Shown here: positions 23,094 to 48,526 of the stretch, in pieces | Position numbering within the stretch: the first letter of the stretch is position 1 | Layout: every line of letters begins with the position of its first letter | Source of the DNA: a virus | Lineage: Duplodnaviria; Caudoviricetes | DNA: 64,000 nucleotides | IMG/VR virus record: IMGVR_UViG_3300033518_000398 | Span: 14,764 to 78,763 of that record | Strand: one strand, 5' to 3' | The notes under the pieces: model-generated | Told to the model about the DNA's origin: nothing | Seen by the model: only the letters and a program-made list of their open reading frames with translations | Databases searched by the model: none | Made by a program: the position numbers and the translations under genes

Positions 23094-23378
23094 ATGAAGA
23101 AAAAAACTAAAGAAATGCTTTTTGAAATGATGGAAAAATTAAATCCAGATTTCAATGTTCAAGAAGCTGGGGTTGCACCAGATGTTGTTAGTGCACAAAA
23201 AGCTACGACAACTAATGTGCAACGTGCTAATCAACGTATTGGTACACCACAAGAATTTCAAGATGGTTTTATGGCATGGCTTGGAACAACAGGCTTTGAC
23301 CCAGTAAAGAAACCATTAGGTATTTCTGATGCACAATCTCGTGTGAAAAACGCAATGATTGCACTGGGTTATAAATAA
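23094..23378 (+). CDS. LFE-leader family protein
   Basis: MKKKTKEMLFEMMEKLNPDFNVQE; GTATTTAT at 23072-23079. Confidence 0.7.
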   Translation: MKKKTKEMLFEMMEKLNPDFNVQEAGVAPDVVSAQKATTTNVQRANQRIGTPQEFQDGFMAWLGTTGFDPVKKPLGISDAQSRVKNAMIALGYK

Positions 23379-23435
23379 AAAATAATTATTTTTGAAAATA
23401 ATTTGAAATTTGTTTGTATTTATGATTTTAATGCA

Positions 23436-23443
23436 TATATTTG
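23436..23443 (+). promoter_or_regulatory. Bacteroidota sigma70 -7 element (TAnnTTTG) for attenuated tRNA cluster 1
   Basis: TATATTTG with TTTG about 20 nt upstream; same element at 24391, 26500, 42864, 47043, 52882. Confidence 0.75.
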
Positions 23444-23480
23444 CACTCAGAAGTTTTAATAAATGTTATTTGTAGTTGAA

Positions 23481-23555
23481 ATGAAAAATTTAGTGAACAT
23501 AGTGCCCCAACCGCAACAACATCCACAGGATGGTGAATGGGGAAAGTACGCTTAA
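23481..23555 (+). CDS. Attenuator leader peptide 1: MKNLVNIVPQPQQHPQDGEWGKYA
   Basis: Hand-translated 24-aa ORF; PQPQQHPQ run; GAATGGGG 23535-23542 complementary to the terminator 5' arm. Confidence 0.8.
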   Translation: MKNLVNIVPQPQQHPQDGEWGKYA

Positions 23556-23585
23556 TTTTTCAATTGAAGTTTTAAGTTAAACATG

Positions 23586-23614
23586 ACCCCATTCTGAAAA
23601 GAGTGGGGTTTTTT
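23586..23614 (+). terminator. Attenuator terminator 1
   Basis: ACCCCATTC-TGAAAA-GAGTGGGGT followed by a U tract. Confidence 0.85.
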
Positions 23615-23624
23615 ATTTTCATAT

Positions 23625-23702
23625 CTGGGTGTACTGCAGATGGCTATACTACGATGCCTTGGAAGCATCGGTCCGCAGGTTCGAATCCTGCCACTCAGAC
23701 CA
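23625..23702 (+). tRNA. tRNA-Pro(UGG)
   Basis: Cloverleaf; loop CTTGGAA; CCA encoded. Confidence 0.9.
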
Positions 23703-23706
23703 ATAT

Positions 23707-23784
23707 GGTGATTGTAGAGGAATTGGTAGACTCACCTGACTGTGAATCAGGAATCTTGCGGGTTCGAGTCCCGTCTTTCACCCA
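23707..23784 (+). tRNA. tRNA-His(GUG)
   Basis: Loop CTGTGAA; G-1:C73; two acceptor mismatches. Confidence 0.8.
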
Positions 23785-23808
23785 AATATCGTTCTTTTAT
23801 ATGGTTAT

Positions 23809-23882
23809 AGAGTAGTAGCGCAGTTGGTTAGCGTACCGCATTTGGGATGCGGGGGTCGAGAGTTCGAGTCTCTCCTACTCTA
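23809..23882 (+). tRNA. tRNA-Pro(UGG), second copy
   Basis: CCGCA-TTTGGGA-TGCGG anticodon arm. Confidence 0.9.
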
Positions 23883-23887
23883 CTGTG

Positions 23888-23958
23888 TTAGTTGTAGATG
23901 CTGGCATTCTACACGTGACTGTGAATCACGGATACGGGGGTTCGATTCCCCTCTAAAA
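23888..23958 (+). pseudogene. Degenerate tRNA-His(GUG)
   Basis: Intact anticodon arm CGTGA-CTGTGAA-TCACG and T arm; acceptor stem does not pair. Confidence 0.6.
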
Positions 23959-23997
23959 AATTTTTGTACTTAAAGTATTTATCTGAAAATTGTGTAT

Positions 23998-24360
23998 ATG
24001 AAAAAAGGTAATAAACAAATGTTATTTGAGATGATGCATAAGGTTGCAGGAATGCCTTTAAATGAAATGGCAAAACCAATAAAAGAATTTCGTAATACAA
24101 TTGGTGATAAAAAAATGGTTTATTATTTAATGCCAAATACTCCCAAAGCAGAAGAAAAGGGTTATGATACTTCAATATTTAAGGTTGATAATTATCATGG
24201 TAACGTGACATTATCATATTATTGGTTAAATAGAGAATCAGATGAAAATTGGTATAAACCCAAATATGGTACTCATGTAGATGAATATAAATCACAATAT
24301 ATTTCACAAAGTAGAGAACCAGAAAAAGCAAATATGTTAATTCAAAAGCATAATTTATAA
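23998..24360 (+). CDS. LFE-leader family protein inserted in tRNA cluster
   Basis: MKKGNKQMLFEMMHKVAGMPLNE; GTATTTAT at 23975-23982. Confidence 0.7.
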   Translation: MKKGNKQMLFEMMHKVAGMPLNEMAKPIKEFRNTIGDKKMVYYLMPNTPKAEEKGYDTSIFKVDNYHGNVTLSYYWLNRESDENWYKPKYGTHVDEYKSQYISQSREPEKANMLIQKHNL

Positions 24361-24406
24361 TATTATTGCATTAAATTATATTTATTTATATATATTTGCA
24401 TAATAT

Positions 24407-24479
24407 TGACCTGTGGTGTAATTGGCAACACGTCTCACTTTGACTGAGAAGAGTCCAAGTTCGAGCCTTGGCAGGTCAA
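24407..24479 (+). tRNA. tRNA-Gln(UUG)
   Basis: TCTCA-CTTTGAC-TGAGA; acceptor TGACCTG/CAGGTCA. Confidence 0.9.
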
Positions 24480-24495
24480 CTAATTTTCTTGGAAT

Positions 24496-24723
24496 ATGGA
24501 TGAATTGGAAAAATTACGAAAAGAAAATGAAGATTTGAAAGACAAATTAACTGATTTGACTTTTGAATTGAATTATAATAAACAAACCGAGTTAATTGAA
24601 TTCGTTCGTGAATTATATCAATCATTAGGTAATGTTGGTAAAAATCTTACAAAGAAAGAAATGATTGAAAATCTGAGAAACCATATTCGAGAGTTTACAA
24701 AAAATAATAAAATACAATTATGA
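24496..24723 (+). CDS. Small coiled-coil hypothetical protein
   Basis: 75 aa ORF. Confidence 0.65.
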   Translation: MDELEKLRKENEDLKDKLTDLTFELNYNKQTELIEFVRELYQSLGNVGKNLTKKEMIENLRNHIREFTKNNKIQL

Positions 24724-25124
24724 GTAATTATAATCTTTACCTCGATGACTTTCGTCAACCAATTGATAGTAGTTACTATCTTAATAATCCCATATATGGA
24801 AACTTAAAATGGGAAGTTGTTCGAAGTTATGATGAATTTGTGAAAATAATAACTGAAAAAGGTATTCCTGATATCGTGAGTTTCGACCATGATTTGGCTG
24901 ATGAACATTACGACCCAGAATTACATGGTAGTGAAACCTATAACGAAAAATACGATAATTTTGTATTTAAAACTGGATATGATTGCGCCAAATGGTTTAT
25001 TAATTATTGTATTGATAACCAAAAAGATGTACCAGAAAAAATTTTCATTCATTCTATGAATCCAGCAGGAAGTGCTAATATTAAATCGTTATTTGATACA
25101 TATAATAAGTATCGTAGAATTTAA
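24720..25124 (+). CDS. Cyclic-phosphate-processing receiver domain protein
   Basis: LYLDDFRQP...SFDHDL...TGYDCAKW...IHSMNPAG motifs. Confidence 0.8.
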   Translation: MSNYNLYLDDFRQPIDSSYYLNNPIYGNLKWEVVRSYDEFVKIITEKGIPDIVSFDHDLADEHYDPELHGSETYNEKYDNFVFKTGYDCAKWFINYCIDNQKDVPEKIFIHSMNPAGSANIKSLFDTYNKYRRI

Positions 25125-25853
25125 TTACCTTCCTCCAGCACTCCTTGAACCAGAAGTACCTGTTGAACTTCCAGCACTTCTTGTTGGTTGTGAATAACTA
25201 CGTGACGTTGTATTTGACGGTGCTCTTGTCGGTGCAGTACGAGAATATGAGGGAGCAGTTGAGGGTGCGGTTCTTGTTGGTGTATTATATGTACGTGATT
25301 GAGTATTTGATGTAGGTCTGGTTGTAGTATTTCTACTTCGAGTCACATCATTATTATATGTCGGACGTGTAGATGTTCGAGGTACAGTATAGGTTGGTTT
25401 ATATTCTCTTGTATATGTTGGTTTTGATTTGATGTTAACATGGTTTGAAACCACGTATCTATGTCCATAATAATGGTTAATATAATAGCTGTTACGACCC
25501 CAATATCCATAATAGTAGCTATTATAATATCTATTATAGTAATATGGTGTATACCAATAATTATAATAAAAGGGGTCATAATGGAGACAATAGGGACGAT
25601 ATACATATCCAAATGTTAATAAAACCCGATAATTTGGTTGGTCATTGTCTTCATAATAGTTGTTAATTATAACGGGTTCAGATTTTTCTTTAACAATTAT
25701 ATAAACAGTATCTGTTTTTGTCGTGTCAGGAGTTCCATATAATTCTTTATCTTTCTCAATACGATATTTTTCGTAATTTGAAAGTTCAGCTTCTTGTCCA
25801 ATTAAAACAAATGCAAAGAGAATTGCGAGTAGTGTTAATAGTATCTTTTTCAT
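25125..25853 (-). CDS. Secreted protein with Tyr-rich and Ser/Thr/Arg-rich low-complexity regions
   Basis: N-terminal signal peptide; composition. Confidence 0.7.
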   Translation of the reverse strand: MKKILLTLLAILFAFVLIGQEAELSNYEKYRIEKDKELYGTPDTTKTDTVYIIVKEKSEPVIINNYYEDNDQPNYRVLLTFGYVYRPYCLHYDPFYYNYWYTPYYYNRYYNSYYYGYWGRNSYYINHYYGHRYVVSNHVNIKSKPTYTREYKPTYTVPRTSTRPTYNNDVTRSRNTTTRPTSNTQSRTYNTPTRTAPSTAPSYSRTAPTRAPSNTTSRSYSQPTRSAGSSTGTSGSRSAGGR

Positions 25854-25935
25854 GACTTGTGTGTTTTTAATTAAAAGACAATTAACGTGCCAAAATTTTA
25901 CATGAAAATCAACTATTTATAGTAAATTTCATTAC

Positions 25936-26421
25936 ATGAAAAAACAAGATAGCAAACAAAGACTTTTTGAAGTTATGGGAAGACTTGACAAAACATTCAA
26001 GTCTAAATTAAATGAAAATATGGGTGTAGCACTTAATGAAGAAAGTAGACCATTATATGATATAGCTCAAGAAATATATCAAGACTGGAAACCAGTACAT
26101 CCTTATGCAAAAGAATATCTTGATGCAATGTCAAGTCTATCGTCAATAAATGATAAATATATGTTTGATTCTGGAAGTGAGATTGTAGCACGTTTTCTTT
26201 CAAATGCAAGTCAATGGAAAGGCGAAACAGCTAAAAGAATAAAGACCGAACTAAAACAAATGTTGGGATTGAAAGAGGGTTATTATGATGATGAGGGTGA
26301 TGACTCTGATGCTGGACATACAGTAAATGGTAAATTATTATCTCCAGATGAATATAGGAAATGGAAAGAAGAAGAAGGAGAATATGATGACATGGATAAA
26401 CTTAACAGACCAAGATATTGA
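25936..26421 (+). CDS. LFE-leader family protein
   Basis: MKKQDSKQRLFEVMGRLDKTFKSKLNE, nearly identical to the leader of 17567..18055. Confidence 0.75.
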   Translation: MKKQDSKQRLFEVMGRLDKTFKSKLNENMGVALNEESRPLYDIAQEIYQDWKPVHPYAKEYLDAMSSLSSINDKYMFDSGSEIVARFLSNASQWKGETAKRIKTELKQMLGLKEGYYDDEGDDSDAGHTVNGKLLSPDEYRKWKEEEGEYDDMDKLNRPRY

Positions 26422-26532
26422 AATATCATTAAGAATTAATTTTAATAAGCATATTTATTGATTTTTTTTGGAAAATGTTTGTATTTATGAAAAATTGATT
26501 ATCTTTGCAGAAGAAATTTAAAATTTAAAACA

Positions 26533-26622
26533 ATGAGAAATTTACTCGACATATTAATGGTAGCTTTGGAAGCAGTCCTATTATGGGCAGCAGATGAGGA
26601 TAAAATACGTTCAGTCGGGTAA
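26533..26622 (+). CDS. Attenuator leader peptide 2: MRNLLDILMVALEAVLLWAADEDKIRSVG
   Basis: 29-aa ORF after TATCTTTG promoter (26500); AGTCGGGT 26613-26620 complementary to the terminator 5' arm. Confidence 0.75.
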   Translation: MRNLLDILMVALEAVLLWAADEDKIRSVG

Positions 26623-26653
26623 TACAATATTACACACTCCTTTCTTTAATAAG

Positions 26654-26688
26654 AAAAACCCGACTCTCCACAATAAGTCGGGTTTTTT
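26654..26688 (+). terminator. Attenuator terminator 2
   Basis: AAAAACCCGACT...AGTCGGGTTTTTT. Confidence 0.85.
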
Positions 26689-26702
26689 GTTTTAGTGTGT
26701 AG

Positions 26703-26713
26703 GTTCTTTGACA
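26703..26713 (+). promoter_or_regulatory. boxA-like element
   Basis: GTTCTTTGACA; similar sites at 31619, 39194, 47286 and 48108, all in tRNA-bearing transcripts. Confidence 0.55.
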
Positions 26714-26725
26714 TGTTGGAAATTT

Positions 26726-26796
26726 GGTCTATTGGGGTATGGGTATCCTTGGTGGTTGTCGCCCACCAGAAGCGAGTTCGAGTCTCGCATAGACCG
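26726..26796 (+). tRNA. tRNA-Asp(GUC)
   Basis: Loop TTGTCGC; acceptor GGTCTAT/ATAGACC; G73. Confidence 0.85.
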
Positions 26797-26825
26797 CCTG
26801 ACTTATTTTCTTTTTCTGTGTATTT

Positions 26826-27545
26826 ATGTATATGGAAAAAGAAAATAAGTATTATTTGGTTTATAAAACAACCAATTTGAAAAATGGTAAGTTTTATATT
26901 GGTGTTCACGAAACATATAATCTCAATGACGGTTATTTGGGTTCTGGGAAAGTTCTTAGGAACAGCGTTTATTATCATGGGAAAGAAAATTTTAAAAGGG
27001 AAATTCTTGAATTCTGTGAAGATAAAAAAAGCATGTATCAAAAAGAAAAGGAATTTGTTACTGAAGAACTGATAATGAATTCTAAATGTATGAATTTAGT
27101 TGTTGGTGGAATGGGATTCATTAATGATGAAAAACATCGTGAGGTTTCACAATTAGGTGGTAATGCGACTTCATTGAAACTAAAAAATGACCCAGAATTT
27201 AGAAAGAGACATCAAAAAATTGTCTCGGAGAATATGAAAAAAGCGCATCAATTAGGAAAAATTATACCACCTGATTGGACTGGTAAAAAACATAAAGAAG
27301 AAACAAAAAGAAAAATCGGAATAAAAAATTCAATCAAACAAAGTGGCATTAATAATTCACAATTTGGTACTTGTTGGATAACAAAAAACGGTAATGATAA
27401 AAAAATAAAAAAAGAATACCTTCAAGAATATCTTTCTGAAGGTTGGATTAAAGGTAGATATGCTCGGTTCGAATCCGATATGGGGTACAAAGTATATTCA
27501 ATTTCACAGTGCTTTGGTGTGGTCATTACCTATTTTTTCAAGTAA
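26826..27545 (+). CDS. GIY-YIG homing endonuclease with NUMOD3 (Seg-like)
   Basis: YLVYKTTNLKNGKFYIGVH...YLGSG; WTGKKHKEETKRKIG. Confidence 0.9.
   Translation: MYMEKENKYYLVYKTTNLKNGKFYIGVHETYNLNDGYLGSGKVLRNSVYYHGKENFKREILEFCEDKKSMYQKEKEFVTEELIMNSKCMNLVVGGMGFINDEKHREVSQLGGNATSLKLKNDPEFRKRHQKIVSENMKKAHQLGKIIPPDWTGKKHKEETKRKIGIKNSIKQSGINNSQFGTCWITKNGNDKKIKKEYLQEYLSEGWIKGRYARFESDMGYKVYSISQCFGVVITYFFK
27462..27487 (+). pseudogene. 3' remnant of a tRNA (T arm plus acceptor strand), possibly tRNA-Glu
   Basis: TCGG-TTCGAAT-CCGA then ATGGGGT-A; no 5' half found. Confidence 0.5.
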
Positions 27546-27608
27546 TAATTCATGTCTTTTAAATGATTATTTGAATATTTTTTGTATTTATGATAAACAT
27601 AACAACCA

Positions 27609-27959
27609 ATGAAAATATTAATTGTTGATGATAATACATTAGTACACTATTTGATAAAAGCCATGATTGAAGCAATGATTGAAGAAAATGGTTTTGAATT
27701 GTTTGATGTATATAACGGTGAAGAAGCGGTTGATTTTGCATTAAATAATGAATTGGACTTGATTTTCATGGACATAATGATGCCAATATTAGATGGTATT
27801 GAAGCAACTAAAATAATAAAAAAATTCTCACCCAACATACCAATAATATGTATTAGTGCATATCAACAGAATCAAGAGATATCTCGTTTATTTGATGACA
27901 TAGTTCAAAAACCATTTGTAACTAAGCAAATAATAGGTAAAATTAAAAAATACGAATAA
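27609..27959 (+). CDS. Single-domain response regulator (CheY-like receiver)
   Basis: LIVDD, DLIFMDIMMP, LDGIEA, ISA and KPF motifs. Confidence 0.9.
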   Translation: MKILIVDDNTLVHYLIKAMIEAMIEENGFELFDVYNGEEAVDFALNNELDLIFMDIMMPILDGIEATKIIKKFSPNIPIICISAYQQNQEISRLFDDIVQKPFVTKQIIGKIKKYE

Positions 27960-27988
27960 CATCCAGTATTTATGATAAACCTAAAGTT

Positions 27989-28507
27989 ATGGATTATCAT
28001 ATAATGTTATTTCTGACAATGATTGCAGTATTTGTTTCATATATTGCTGCAGTATGGATTAAATTTGGCGTACAGCCATCAATAAGTGCAAGTTATGATT
28101 GTTGGAAAGGTAATTGGCAATCATTATTCACTCTTTTCTGTTGGGGATTTGCATTTCCTGCAATGATTATTGGTGTAGAGGTAACACCATTGATGTTTTT
28201 CGCAACTGCTGGAATAATGTTCGTTGGTGCTGCATATCAAATAAAAAATCCTTGGGTATATAAATATCACATGATATTTGCAGTATCAGGAATAATTTTC
28301 AGTCAATTAGCAATATATTTTGGTTATGATTTATTATGGTTAAACATTGTGTCTGTTGCGTTAACCGCATTAATATTATTAGCTAAACAATTTCTGGGTT
28401 TAAAGAATCACTTCTGGTGGATGGAGTTAGTGTACTTTGCTGCAATAGTTTATGCTATGGGAACTAAGATTATTCCTCTACTGTATCTAACAACATTTTT
28501 ATTTTAA
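27989..28507 (+). CDS. Multi-pass membrane protein
   Basis: About six hydrophobic segments. Confidence 0.75.
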   Translation: MDYHIMLFLTMIAVFVSYIAAVWIKFGVQPSISASYDCWKGNWQSLFTLFCWGFAFPAMIIGVEVTPLMFFATAGIMFVGAAYQIKNPWVYKYHMIFAVSGIIFSQLAIYFGYDLLWLNIVSVALTALILLAKQFLGLKNHFWWMELVYFAAIVYAMGTKIIPLLYLTTFLF

Positions 28508-28510
28508 TAT

Positions 28511-28581
28511 ACGTCTTTGGTGTAACGGTAGCACGATTCTCTCCAAAAGAATTAGTACTTGTTCGAATCGAGTAAGACGTG
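28511..28581 (+). tRNA. tRNA-Trp(CCA)
   Basis: ATTCT-CTCCAAA-AGAAT; acceptor ACGTCTT/AAGACGT. Confidence 0.85.
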
Positions 28582-28625
28582 CAATATTAAAAACATGCAT
28601 TTAAAATTAATCATTTATTTATTAA

Positions 28626-28934
28626 TTATAAAGTAAAACCCTTGGTAGATTGCCTTTTACCATTCAATACATGATATGTTGTTGTTTCATCTAATTTATG
28701 TTTTTTACAAAAATTTTTAACTGACTTAAATTGATATTTAATACCATTTCTATATAGAATATGTTCTTTATTGTTATATTTTATTCTATTTCTTAATTCG
28801 GTTAGTGTAAAATCATGTTTTTTAAAAACAGTCCAATTTTTAAAAAATGTCATTTTAAGTTTTCTTAACATTAATGACATTAACATCTTATCATTTAAAT
28901 TATTGTCTTTACAAAATTTGGAAAAATTATCCAC
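28626..28934 (-). pseudogene. Homing endonuclease DNA-binding (NUMOD-like) remnant
   Basis: FKSVKNFCKKHKLD...VLNGKRQSTKGF C-terminus; no catalytic domain. Confidence 0.5.
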
Positions 28935-39185: not shown

Positions 39186-39225
39186 GTTATATTATTCTTT
39201 GAAGATTTGAAAGCGAAATGAAATT

Positions 39226-42903: not shown

Positions 42904-45900
42904 ATGGCACAAAAAACCCTAAAAACCTACACAAAACAAGAAGTTGAAAAAGCAACATTAAACTATTTTAAAGGAGATGGATTAGCTACCGATGTATGGA
43001 TGAAAAAATATTGTTTAAAGGATGAAAACAATTATTACGAACTCACTCCTGATGATATGCATAAAAGAATTGCAAGTGAACTTGCAAGAATAGAAGCTAA
43101 ATATCCAAACCCACTTACCGAAGAACAAATTTTTGAAACATTGAAAAATTTTAAGAGAATTGTACCACAAGGAAGTCCGATGTCAGGAATTGGAAATAAT
43201 TTTCAGGTAGTATCTATTGGTAATTGTTTTGTTATTGGAAATTATGGTGATGGTGATTCTTATGGTGGAATATTGAATATCGACCAAGAACAGGTTCAAT
43301 TAATGAAACGCAGGGGTGGCGTTGGACATGATTTATCACATATTCGTCCAGCAGGTAGTCCAGTAAAAAATAGTGCAATTAGTAGTACAGGTATCGTACC
43401 CTTTATGGAAAGATATTCAAACAGTACCAGAGAGGTTGCACAAGACGGTAGACGTGGAGCACTTATGCTCAGTGTGTCGATTAAACATCCAGATTCTGAA
43501 GCATTTATTGATGCCAAACTTGAATCTGGTAAGGTAACAGGTGCTAATGTTTCAGTTAAAATCACCGATGAATTCATGAAAGCAGTAATGAATAATAATA
43601 TGTTTCAACAGCAATATCCAATAGATAGTGATAACCCTAAATATGTTAAAAGCATTGACGCTCAAAAACTTTGGAAGAAAATTGTATATAATGCATGGAA
43701 ATCAGCCGAACCCGGTATCTTGTTTTGGGATAAAATAATTGGTGAATCAATACCTTCTTGTTATGGTAAGGAATGGATTGAAAGAAGTACTAATCCATGT
43801 GTTAGTGAAGATACATTAGTATTAACACATCATGGTTATTATGAAATTAGTGAGTTAGTAGATAAGCCAACATTTGTTTGGAATGGTATGAATTTCTCCG
43901 AAGTTACGCCAACAATTACTGGTTATAATCAGAAAATGTTAAAAGTTATCTTTAGTGATGGTTCTGAATTGAAATGTACACCATATCATGGATTTTATAC
44001 TTGGGAAGGTTTTGAACGTGATGGAAAATCAATAAAAAAGGAAGCTAAAGATTTAATCGTTGGAGATAAACTCGAAAAACATGAATTTCCAACACTTTTT
44101 GACCATCAAGTTTTTCATGTCGATAAAACTTTTTATACGTTAGGATTTTTTGCTGGTGATGGTTTTGTGAAAAGAGATAGCACAGCACATGTATCGTTAT
44201 ATGGTGCAAAGAAAAATCTTCTTGATAAATTAGATGTAATTGGTAATGTTTCTGAAGATATTGAAAATGATAAATTAACAATACGTGTTGACTTACCTGT
44301 AGATTATTTTGGAATTGATTTACATGAACTAAAAAAATATGTTCCTAAACGTCATGATAATAATTCATCGGCAATGATGTCATGGTTGGCAGGTATTATA
44401 GATTCTGATGGATGTCGTAATTCAGAAGAAGGTTCAATTTCAATATCATCAATAGATAAACAATTCTTAATGGATATTAAGTTACATCTTTTGAACGTAA
44501 TGGGTGTCAGTGGTAGTGTAATTGATGAAAAAGAAGGTGGGTTACATGAAATTAAAGGCGTTAAATATGATTGTAATAAATCATATCGTTTAATAATTAG
44601 TGCATATAATGTTAAAAAACTTTATGATTTAGGTTTACGTACCTATCGTGTTAAAATCGATGATGTTAATCCGAACCGTGATGCAAGTAGATTCATTACT
44701 GTGAAATCGATTGAGGAAATAGAAGATGCTGAAAAGGTTTATTGTTTTACTGAACCAGAAAGAGGTCGTGGATGTTTCAACGGTATTGTTACTGCGAATT
44801 GTGGCGAGTTACCACTCCCGCCATATGATAGCTGTAGATTACTTGCAATTAATTTATTTGGTTATGTGAGAAATCCGTTTACCAAAGAAGCATATTTTGA
44901 TATGGAAAGTTTTAAGGGCGATGTGATTATATCTATGCGATATATGGATGATATTATCGATTTAGAACTCGAAAAAATCGATAAAATATTAGAAAAAATC
45001 GAATCTGACCCAGAACCTGAAAATTTAAAAAGTGTAGAAAAAGAATTGTGGAATAATATTAGAAGAAAAGCTGAGTTAGGTCGTAGAACTGGACTTGGTG
45101 TTACAGGTGAAGGTGATATGATTGCTGCAATGGGACTACGTTACGGTACTGATGATGCCACCGAATTTAGTGAAGAAGTTCATAAAACATTGAAATTAGA
45201 AGCATATCGCTCAAGTGTTATTATGGCTAAAGAACGTGGTGCATTTCCGATATACGATTGGGATAGAGAAAAATTCAATCCATTTATTCGTAGAATAATG
45301 GATGAGGATACTGAATTATATAATGAAATGGTAACTTTTGGTCGTAGAAACATTGCATTACTTACAATCGCACCGACTGGAACAGTTAGTATTATGACAC
45401 AAACTACATCTGGAATTGAACCAGCATTCTTACCAGTATATATGCGTAGGCGTAAGATTAATCCGCAGGAAAAGGACGTTCGAATTGATTTTATTGATGA
45501 AGAAGGTGTTGCTTGGATGGAATATCCAGTATTTCACCATAAATTTGAAATGTGGTTAGGAATCAATGGCTACGATGTTGAAGTGGTGAAAACCATGAAT
45601 AAGGAACAACTGGATGAAATTGTTAAAAAATCCCCATTTTATAAAGCAACTTCCAATGACGTTGATTGGGTAAAAAAGGTTGAAATGCAAGGCAGGGTTC
45701 AAAGGCATGTTGACCATTCCATAAGCACAACTGTGAACGTCCCTAATGATACAACAGAGGAACTTGTTGGTAAAGTATATGAAACGGGTTGGCGTAGTGG
45801 TTGTAAGGGTATTACTATTTATCGTGATGGTAGTCGTAGTGGTGTGTTGGTTAGTCAAAAAGAAGAAAAGAAAGTAGAAGAACTCCAAGACGTGCATGCA

Positions 45901-46473
45901 CCAAAACGTCCCAAAAGATTAAAAGGTGAAATACATAGGTTTCAGAACAATCTGGAAAAATGGATAGCTGTTGTTGGTATGAAAGATGGTAGACCATATG
46001 AAATCTTTACTGGTGTTAATGCTAATGGTCTTAGTAATTTACCAACAAACGTTAAAGACTGTGAAGTCGTTAAAAATATTATCGAAGTCGAAGTTCTTGA
46101 TGATAACGATAAACCAATTAAAATAAAGAAAAAAAGATATGATATTGAATATGTTGATGTTGATGGCATTAAACAAGTACACACTGGTTTAAATCATGCA
46201 TTCAATCCAGAGTTCTGGAACTATGCCAAGTTAATCTCTGGTATAATGAGACATGGTATGCCAGTTCTTAAACAATACGAATTAATTGAGTCATTGAATT
46301 TTAAAGAAGACTATATTAATACGTGGAAAAATGGTGTGGCACGTGTAATTAAAAAATATATTAAGGATGGTGTTAAAAGCAAAGGAACGTGTCCTGAATG
46401 CGGTGGTACTGATTTTATTTTTCAAGAAGGATGTGTTAAATGTAGTAGTTGTTCTTGGACGAAATGTGGATAA
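42904..46473 (+). CDS. nrdJ: Class II (B12-dependent) ribonucleotide reductase with intein
   Basis: PQGSPM, NPC..E active site, TIAPTGT, C-terminal TSCPD-like region and Zn ribbon; Bacteroidota-like N-terminus. Confidence 0.9.
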   Translation: MAQKTLKTYTKQEVEKATLNYFKGDGLATDVWMKKYCLKDENNYYELTPDDMHKRIASELARIEAKYPNPLTEEQIFETLKNFKRIVPQGSPMSGIGNNFQVVSIGNCFVIGNYGDGDSYGGILNIDQEQVQLMKRRGGVGHDLSHIRPAGSPVKNSAISSTGIVPFMERYSNSTREVAQDGRRGALMLSVSIKHPDSEAFIDAKLESGKVTGANVSVKITDEFMKAVMNNNMFQQQYPIDSDNPKYVKSIDAQKLWKKIVYNAWKSAEPGILFWDKIIGESIPSCYGKEWIERSTNPCVSEDTLVLTHHGYYEISELVDKPTFVWNGMNFSEVTPTITGYNQKMLKVIFSDGSELKCTPYHGFYTWEGFERDGKSIKKEAKDLIVGDKLEKHEFPTLFDHQVFHVDKTFYTLGFFAGDGFVKRDSTAHVSLYGAKKNLLDKLDVIGNVSEDIENDKLTIRVDLPVDYFGIDLHELKKYVPKRHDNNSSAMMSWLAGIIDSDGCRNSEEGSISISSIDKQFLMDIKLHLLNVMGVSGSVIDEKEGGLHEIKGVKYDCNKSYRLIISAYNVKKLYDLGLRTYRVKIDDVNPNRDASRFITVKSIEEIEDAEKVYCFTEPERGRGCFNGIVTANCGELPLPPYDSCRLLAINLFGYVRNPFTKEAYFDMESFKGDVIISMRYMDDIIDLELEKIDKILEKIESDPEPENLKSVEKELWNNIRRKAELGRRTGLGVTGEGDMIAAMGLRYGTDDATEFSEEVHKTLKLEAYRSSVIMAKERGAFPIYDWDREKFNPFIRRIMDEDTELYNEMVTFGRRNIALLTIAPTGTVSIMTQTTSGIEPAFLPVYMRRRKINPQEKDVRIDFIDEEGVAWMEYPVFHHKFEMWLGINGYDVEVVKTMNKEQLDEIVKKSPFYKATSNDVDWVKKVEMQGRVQRHVDHSISTTVNVPNDTTEELVGKVYETGWRSGCKGITIYRDGSRSGVLVSQKEEKKVEELQDVHAPKRPKRLKGEIHRFQNNLEKWIAVVGMKDGRPYEIFTGVNANGLSNLPTNVKDCEVVKNIIEVEVLDDNDKPIKIKKKRYDIEYVDVDGIKQVHTGLNHAFNPEFWNYAKLISGIMRHGMPVLKQYELIESLNFKEDYINTWKNGVARVIKKYIKDGVKSKGTCPECGGTDFIFQEGCVKCSSCSWTKCG
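43798..44799 (+). mobile_element. 334-aa intein with LAGLIDADG endonuclease at the NrdJ active site
   Basis: NP/CVSEDT...GIVTAN/CGE; TLGFFAGDG and WLAGIIDSDG motifs. Confidence 0.9.
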
Positions 46474-47285: not shown

Positions 47286-47299
47286 GTTCTTTGAAATAT

Positions 47300-47983: not shown

Positions 47984-48130
47984 ACGTAAATTTTATTATA
48001 AATACTTTAAAAATTGAATTTCTATTCAGTTTTTAAACTCAAAATAAAATATAACTCTTACTGGTTATAAACATCAAATATAGCCTCTACAGGTTATACC
48101 GTAAGACGTTCATTGACATGCTGGTTTTAT

Positions 48131-48437: not shown

Positions 48438-48526
48438 GAATGATTAGAATTTCGTAGCATAGTGGTAATGCTGCCCGCAAGAAAGGGTGAAGATTGGTTC
48501 GAGTCCAATCAAAATTTTAATCATTC
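48438..48526 (+). ncRNA. tRNA-like element with about 17-bp extended acceptor stem and atypical anticodon loop
   Basis: D and T arms intact; loop GCAAGAAA; GAATGATTAGAATTTCG pairs with CAAAATTTTAATCATTC (one mismatch). Confidence 0.5.

Follow-up and report, generated by a model that had tools for sequence, protein, structure and literature searches.

A putative leader-peptide attenuator in front of a decayed tRNA array in a T4-like phage

The window, i.e., the whole stretch of 64,000 nucleotides that was analysed, is part of a 78.8-kb viral contig with a G+C content of 31%. The phage is T4-like by its portal and terminase families, and ARAGORN predicted 25 tRNA genes and a tmRNA. No cultured relative was found when positions 23300-28700 were searched as DNA against 50,697 phage records, where a homing-endonuclease gene gave the sole match, and a search with the portal protein returned no match above 39% identity. 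An intein that contains a LAGLIDADG endonuclease domain splits the large subunit of ribonucleotide reductase (42904-46473), and in the large array ARAGORN reported a tRNA-like gene (48447-48518) whose anticodon has four bases (aaga). The subject of this study is unit 2 of the genome, in which a short open reading frame (ORF) and an intrinsic terminator precede tRNA genes. The features of the unit are as follows.

26478..26507, plus strand: Bacteroidota-type promoter with TTTG at -33 (26478-26481), a spacer of 18 nt and TATCTTTG at -7 (26500-26507)
26533..26622, plus strand: leader ORF of 29 codons plus TAA (stop codon at 26620-26622); the sensor is codons 4 to 23
26542..26550, plus strand: segment 1, the anti-antiterminator strand (codons 4 to 6), which pairs with 26614-26622 in single-sequence folds and in RNAalifold
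26613..26622, plus strand: segment 2, the 5' arm of the antiterminator, with AGTCGGGT at 26613-26620, the last letter of which is the T of TAA
26630..26638, plus strand: 5' strand of the outer helix, which pairs with 26694-26702
26653..26693, plus strand: intrinsic terminator, with segment 3 at 26653-26665 (core ACCCGACT, 26658-26665) and the loop at 26666-26675
26676..26688, plus strand: segment 4, the 3' arm of the terminator, with a second AGTCGGGT at 26676-26683, followed by the T-run to 26693
26694..26702, plus strand: 3' strand of the outer helix, transcribed only after read-through
26703..26721, plus strand: boxA-like element GTTCTTTGACATGTTGGAA, a 19-mer that ends 4 nt before the first tRNA gene
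26726..26798, plus strand: tRNA-Asp(GTC), the first of the presumably gated genes (ARAGORN), with a cloverleaf that is intact by eye and a weak D-stem
26826..27545, plus strand: GIY-YIG homing-endonuclease ORF (phrog_314, 1e-36), whose homologous part ends near 27459
27462..27487, plus strand: 3' fragment of a lost tRNA gene (T-arm, acceptor strand and discriminator A)
27609..27959, plus strand: gene of a stand-alone receiver domain (PF00072, 2e-20) inside the tRNA unit
27989..28507, plus strand: membrane-protein gene inside the tRNA unit
28511..28582, plus strand: tRNA-Trp(CCA), the gene that closed the ancestral array (ARAGORN and Rfam)

The ORF, the segment over its stop codon, the terminator, tRNA-Asp, the tRNA 3' fragment and tRNA-Trp all lie where a first-pass annotation of this DNA had placed them; segment 1 (26542-26550), the outer helix and the boxA had been overlooked. 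The Rfam tRNA model did not report tRNA-Asp (26726-26798) even at E<=5, and the first tRNA of the relative L150 is of the same type.

Relatives of the unit were reached via the protein of its upstream neighbour, which led to syntenic viral contigs, and then by two DNA-pattern scans of viral contigs, one of which was keyed solely on the conserved motif directly 5' of the first tRNA gene. The resulting leader family comprises 26 distinct related phage contigs besides the window, i.e., 27 sequences (alignment A1). The promoter box, the ORF, the segments and the T-run are common to all 27 and the pre-tRNA boxA motif lies within the aligned stretch in 25, but 16 of the sequences had been retrieved with a search pattern in which part of segment 1 and segment 2 were preset, followed by a filter that demanded the segment 3 core, and the 11 that came from the boxA scan are the only ones free of bias for segments 1, 2 and 3. 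A structure-neutral scan for the Leu-Leu-Trp codons plus GARGA yielded, among the matches listed, almost nothing apart from chance hits and one new member (L285).

A TAnnTTTG box was found 23 to 85 nt 5' of the leader ATG in 27 of 27 family members, and in 23 of these a TTTG was located 15 to 20 nt (mostly 18 to 19 nt) upstream of the box, an arrangement that we take to be the Bacteroides promoter consensus. Segment 2 lay at an in-frame distance from the ATG in 25 of the 27 sequences, and the lengths of the non-coding spacer were spread 11/8/8 over the three residue classes. Moreover, the entropy of the leader columns climbed from 0.46 over 0.61 to 0.79 across codon positions 1, 2 and 3. The conservation of the frame supports the presumed translation of the leader ORF.

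The nascent RNA (26606-26668) folded as the antiterminator, with segment 2 paired to segment 3, at -12.8 kcal/mol (z -3.6; 0 of 200 shuffles), and the full RNA folded as the terminator. The predicted antiterminator and terminator have one strand in common and are mutually exclusive. In the 78.8-kb genome, 20 terminator-like hairpins were found, and a script that looked for a G+C-rich complement of at least 7 nt to the 5' arm no more than 90 nt upstream flagged those of attenuators 1, 2 and 4 only; in attenuator 3, the upstream complement of the 5' arm is visible by eye. An upstream complement is restricted to terminators that precede tRNA arrays. The segments are predicted to pair 1:2, 2:3 and 3:4, which would be the design of trpL, and untranslated RNA should then terminate. 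The idea that untranslated RNA reads through by default was dropped after segment 1 had been found in the folds and by RNAalifold. The folds, the pairing and the conserved anatomy support what had been proposed from the window, namely a leader-peptide attenuator 5' of the tRNA genes in which a terminating ribosome would sit on the antiterminator arm.

In the alignment of the 27 sequences, the antiterminator helix (2:3) had 94.9% of its cells paired, compared to 20 to 50% with a slid partner, and three pairs were changed on both sides. The corresponding values for the terminator helix (3:4) were 97.1%, 37 to 64% and six pairs. The 1:2 helix was predicted in every sequence, with 96.8% of the cells paired and 19 to 44% slid; both of its strands are conserved, and only one-sided changes and no compensatory double changes were seen. 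Compensatory changes are few because there is hardly any variation in the helix cores. In L141, segments 2, 3 and 4 changed together: they read GGTCGAGA, TCTCGACC and GGTCGAGA, with G-to-A, C-to-T and G-to-A exchanges, respectively. Segment 2 overlaps the stop codon in 23 of the 27 sequences, including the window, and the stop codon lies further 3' in L106, L125, L141 and L150. When the window was searched with Rfam at the gathering score, no leader family (Thr, Leu, His, Trp or Phe), no T-box and no other cis-regulatory family was detected; at E<=5, the matches were at chance level only (Thr_leader with 17 of the 55 bits needed; Leu_leader with 15 bits and on the wrong strand).

In every relative, the array 3' of the leader starts with one to three tRNA-Asp genes, continues with Glu, Val, Leu (several anticodons) and Ala, and has Trp as the last member; a short tRNA with the anticodon UAA or CAA often precedes Trp. 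The only other isotype in these arrays is a single Met in L150. The leader of the window had been read as a match of its W-A-A-D-E-D codons to the tRNA-Asp and tRNA-Trp downstream, and these codons are part of the core run Val-Leu-Leu-Trp-Ala-Ala-Asp-Glu-Asp of the sensor (26575-26601). We scored the codon match against 21 long ORFs of the window as background, which is 0.33 for the set of six isotypes. The match to Asp and Trp alone was weak, with 4 of 28 residues and 2 of 2 isotypes (P=0.16, not significant), whereas the match to the relatives' set of Asp, Glu, Val, Leu, Ala and Trp covered 19 of 28 residues and 6 of 6 isotypes (P about 1e-4). Because 19 of the 28 residues belong to the array set of the relatives, the "hydrophobic" residues of the leader are sensor codons. 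The peptide was indeed suspected early on to be easily mistaken for a membrane peptide; this identity is rejected. Its Val, Leu and Ala codons belong to the six-isotype set.

A four-segment design responds to the presence and the position of a ribosome irrespective of the codons, and the array of the window no longer matches its leader. If the switch sensed general translation, i.e., whether a ribosome follows the polymerase, the codons of the ORF would be incidental. However, the leader matches the array not only in the family of the window but also in three unrelated leader families that are found at boxA sites of other phage lineages (the units of L108, L124 and L115): there, the leaders cover every isotype of the array (17/17, 13/13 and 17/17), and of 27 to 32 scored residues each, only 2 to 4 fall outside the array set (P<=1e-4 each). 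In the genome of the window itself, attenuators 1 and 4 match their own arrays (P=4e-4 and 1e-5), and attenuator 3 gives a weak match (P=0.03). In addition, the in-set codons are confined to the core. In the 22 canonical leaders, 87% of the codons from codon 4 to the Glu-Asp pair are in the set, but only 38%, which is about background, of the four spacer codons that would place a ribosome over segment 2, and 0% of codons 2 and 3. Finally, rare codons are over-used: GTC makes up 50% of the Val codons in leaders but 4% in phage genes, GAG 54% of the Glu codons but 8%, and CTA 22% of the Leu codons but 7%. Codon choice in the leaders is skewed to codons rarely used by the phage. On this evidence, we regard a sensor of general coupling as improbable.

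Leaders and arrays do not always change in step. In L111, the two agree, which speaks for the codon match: the leader body lacks a Val codon and the array lacks a tRNA-Val. In L104 and the window, the Val and Ala codons are kept and the matching tRNAs are absent. Because the arrays of the window and of L104 no longer match their leaders, the correlation between leader and array is historical rather than strict.

What happened to the array of the window can be read from the genes that now fill the unit. The GIY-YIG gene is homologous to copies that occupy several array positions in relatives (L058, L068, L025 and L150). These copies stop a few codons past a conserved Gly-Trp-x-Lys-Gly-Arg motif, whereas the frame in the window continues into the tRNA fragment; therefore, a deletion fused both, and with it the other genes for Asp, Glu, Val, Leu and Ala tRNAs disappeared. 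Compared to the relatives, about a dozen tRNA genes are lost in the window. The fusion of the GIY-YIG 3' end to a tRNA fragment suggests that endonuclease traffic erodes the arrays. In L150 (83% identity), L036 and L037, a homologue of the membrane-protein gene is located 3' of the last tRNA-Leu and 5' of tRNA-Trp, and a receiver-domain gene was not found at the same place in the fetched loci of the relatives. Directly 3' of tRNA-Asp, a 20-bp A+T-rich hairpin (26802-26849) reaches over the beginning of the endonuclease ORF, whose translation start it may mask.

A lost tRNA-Glu had been predicted from the Glu codon of the leader, and such a gene was evidently once present: tRNA-Glu genes directly follow the Asp genes in 23 of 23 relatives whose fetched DNA extends past Asp. 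The Asp-Glu-Trp array postulated as its ancestral context did not hold up, since none of the relatives compared has an array so simple. The assignment of the remnant at 27462-27487 to tRNA-Glu fared no better. The distance over the T-stem and the acceptor was 4 to 5 to the short intra-array tRNA(UAA) but at least 6 to all 44 Glu tRNAs, which is weak evidence given the 26 bases of the fragment. The membrane-protein gene lies 3' of the fragment, and in L150, L036 and L037 it lies between the short tRNA(UAA) and Trp. By its sequence, the fragment is somewhat more probably a tRNA(UAA) than anything else, and an origin from tRNA-Glu appears unlikely. The intra-array tRNAs with the UAA anticodon (L037, L132, L150 and L054) have 74 to 75 nt and lack a long variable arm; the tRNA-Leu(UAA) encoded further downstream has 87 to 89 nt.

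With only Asp and Trp left and with homing-endonuclease, receiver-domain and membrane-protein genes in the unit, the element of the window might be a relic, a switch that survives in sequence but gives no useful regulation since the tRNAs it was tuned to are gone. Its parts, however, are all intact: promoter, ORF, the four segments, outer helix and boxA are in place, and the leader region is up to 87% identical to those of relatives at the nucleotide level. Asp and Trp codons are still present in the leader, and a recent loss of the other tRNA genes would explain the situation equally well. We see only a slim chance that the element is such a relic.

The order of residues in the leader is conserved in the 27 phages (L-D-I-L ... 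L-L-W ... E-D), and this would also fit a functional peptide. The ORF would then encode a conserved small hydrophobic or acidic peptide with a terminator of its own, for which the strong terminator directly 3' of the ORF would be suitable, and the tRNAs would arise from leaky read-through or from another promoter. However, the peptide matched no Pfam and no PHROG family. Its Asp and Glu residues are found at shifting positions within the hydrophobic stretch, and in its variable middle Val, Ala, Leu, Met, Asp and Glu are reshuffled and nothing else. No promoter-like boxes were seen in the gap of about 35 nt between the T-run and the tRNA gene, which is mostly taken up by the outer-helix strand and boxA. 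Moreover, the nucleotides of segment 2 are kept despite a differing frame or stop codon (L125, L150 and L106); in L125, the frame over segment 2 differs and the nucleotides are kept, and therefore segment 2 is constrained as RNA. Segment 1 uses the rare codons CTC and GAC; these are frozen at synonymous sites, a conservation that the predicted 1:2 pairing would explain. A peptide gene with its own terminator is thus very improbable in our view.

The terminator is enclosed by the outer helix, whose strands vary widely among relatives yet match within each of them. In 24 sequences, the summed duplex energy was -240 kcal/mol with the own partners vs -187 ± 10 kcal/mol with permuted partners, and 0 of 20000 permutations reached the former value. 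Between the stop codon and the terminator, the window (26636-26646) and about 22 relatives (A1 columns 128-138) have a conserved CTCCTTTCT tract. It reads like the 3' end of 16S rRNA (anti-Shine-Dalgarno region), pairs with AAGAAA in a small hairpin and, in many relatives, provides the 5' strand of the outer helix.

The motif in front of the first tRNA gene was also considered as the -35 box of a sigma-70 promoter; this was rejected, and the motif is boxA. The 19-mer recurred in over 120 stretches of contigs from bacterial genomes, most of which bear Bacteroidota titles, and in the four rRNA operons checked it was located 36 to 110 nt upstream of the 23S rRNA gene, which is the classical position of boxA. 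Because of this distribution in rRNA operons of Bacteroidota, the host is taken to be a member of the Bacteroidota. Only 2 of 123 boxA sites on bacterial contigs carry this leader, and both contigs are probably mis-binned phage DNA; therefore, the leader is not a feature of host rRNA operons. The phage has placed a host rRNA-type antitermination signal, with a putative function, directly behind the presumably regulated terminator. Motifs of this type (GTTCTTTGACATG and variants) occur at 26703-26721, 47286-47298, about 48104-48122 and about 39198-39210; they are found after the terminators of units 2, 3 and 4, and one more directly precedes tRNA-Cys. The 19-mer at 26703-26721 fits the boxA consensus given in PMC13753749. 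A reading in which the hairpins serve boxA and the 5' maturation of the tRNA as a platform for processing or in the manner of boxB, with no regulated termination at all, is barely credible: the outer helix and hairpin directly before boxA do resemble the hairpin-boxA order of rrn leaders (PMC13753749), but such a reading would account neither for the presumed translation of the ORF nor for the T-run, the codon match and the ability of segment 2 to pair in two ways.

With a probability of roughly 0.7, we propose that a ribosome-mediated leader-peptide transcription attenuator gates this phage tRNA operon. From the anatomy, its conservation, the conserved frame and the match of leader and array, we infer every step of the response, which would run as follows. 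A host-type promoter would start an RNA whose first 90 nt would encode the 29-codon peptide and whose four segments could pair in three ways, as 1:2, 2:3 (the antiterminator) and 3:4 (the terminator). In the absence of a ribosome, 1:2 and 3:4 would form and transcription would stop at the T-run (26688-26693). A ribosome that is fast to reach the stop codon would cover segment 2, so that 3:4 would form and transcription would again be terminated. Nearly all of codons 4 to 23 are Asp, Glu, Val, Leu, Ala or Trp codons, many of them rarely used by the phage; a ribosome slowed on these codons would already have melted 1:2 and would leave segment 2 free, 2:3 would form and the polymerase would read through. 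The later half of the sensor falls in the stretch that separates segment 1 from segment 2, and a ribosome stalled there may block 1:2 by steric hindrance or by means of a queued second ribosome. After read-through, the RNA would refold, with the terminator hairpin within the outer helix and boxA at its foot, and boxA, by analogy with rRNA operons, probably loads NusB/S10 and thereby lets the polymerase run through the untranslated tRNA genes. The net effect would be a negative feedback in which a shortage of the matching charged tRNAs increases the synthesis of phage tRNA. The leader would have been built for an Asp-Glu-Val-Leu-Ala-Trp array, and the deletion beside the homing-endonuclease gene would have left Asp and Trp behind an intact switch.

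A wider reading of such leaders is possible but speculative. They might serve a codon-by-codon surveillance of the tRNA pool in the infected cell, in which depletion of host tRNAs, for which host shut-off or an anticodon-nuclease defence could be the source, stalls the ribosome on the matching leader codon and switches on a block of replacement tRNAs. Each block would have one "barcode" leader, boxA would carry the polymerase through the array, and the window would represent the next step, in which the array was eroded faster than its sensor by homing-endonuclease traffic.

Leader-peptide attenuation is a textbook mechanism. The unit of the window resembles the leaders trpL, hisL, pheL and leuL in its short and presumably translated ORF, in the predicted pairings 1:2, 2:3 and 3:4, in an intrinsic terminator that ends in a U-tract, in a stop codon placed so that a ribosome there would cover segment 2, and in rare regulatory codons; leuL of E. 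coli, for example, uses rare CUA codons. In contrast to these, the switch of the window would regulate phage tRNA genes and not biosynthetic enzymes, its sensor codons fill nearly the whole ORF and reach the loop between segments 1 and 2, whereas those of trpL are inside segment 1, its terminator is followed by boxA with an outer helix, and it matches no Rfam leader family. The ilvGMEDA leader (Leu/Val/Ile) and the thr leader (Thr/Ile) also sample several amino acids at once, but the window leader would sample six isotypes and those of the sister families 13 to 17, and the set is identical to that of the tRNA genes 3' of the leader. The pheST (pheM) leader and T-box riboswitches follow the same logic, in that a shortage of charged tRNA raises a component of the same decoding step. 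However, pheM controls a synthetase gene and not tRNA genes, and T-boxes bind uncharged tRNA directly and work ribosome-free; the window had no T-box match in Rfam at the gathering score or at E<=5. As to boxA and Nus-factor antitermination of rrn operons, the 19-mer of the window fits the consensus, has the same sequence as the element 5' of the 23S rRNA gene in many Bacteroidota and has a hairpin directly before it, but it is found in a phage tRNA operon just after what would be a regulated terminator, and the role of NusB/S10 is predicted by analogy.

In full-text searches of the literature, we found no publication on the control of tRNA genes by leader peptides, with leaders that list the isotypes of the array and a boxA behind the terminator. 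The present analysis of the unit adds the decay of the array and the interpretation of the leader by way of relatives, a fourth pairing segment, the helix around the terminator, the dependence of codon content on leader position and a probable identity for the tRNA fragment. The proposed attenuator bears on the open question of what large phages do with their dozens of tRNA genes and why they have them. If it is true, a tRNA block would be switched on by slow reading of its own codons and not otherwise, which gives a demand-driven logic for phage tRNA genes; classical attenuation would be extended from amino acid supply to tRNA supply, and the leaders would be compact natural sensors for up to 17 isoacceptor families.

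Compared to units 1, 3 and 4 of the same genome, unit 2 has a decayed array, and its leader is readable only through the relatives. It can be regarded as a fossil record of the lost array that "predicts" the Glu, Val, Leu and Ala tRNAs kept only by relatives. Units 1 and 2 have in common the promoter (23413-23443 and 26478-26507, respectively) and the first eight codons, with about 17 of 24 bases identical (23481-23504 vs 26533-26556). By sequence, the two units look like paralogues that diverged in their sensor codons.
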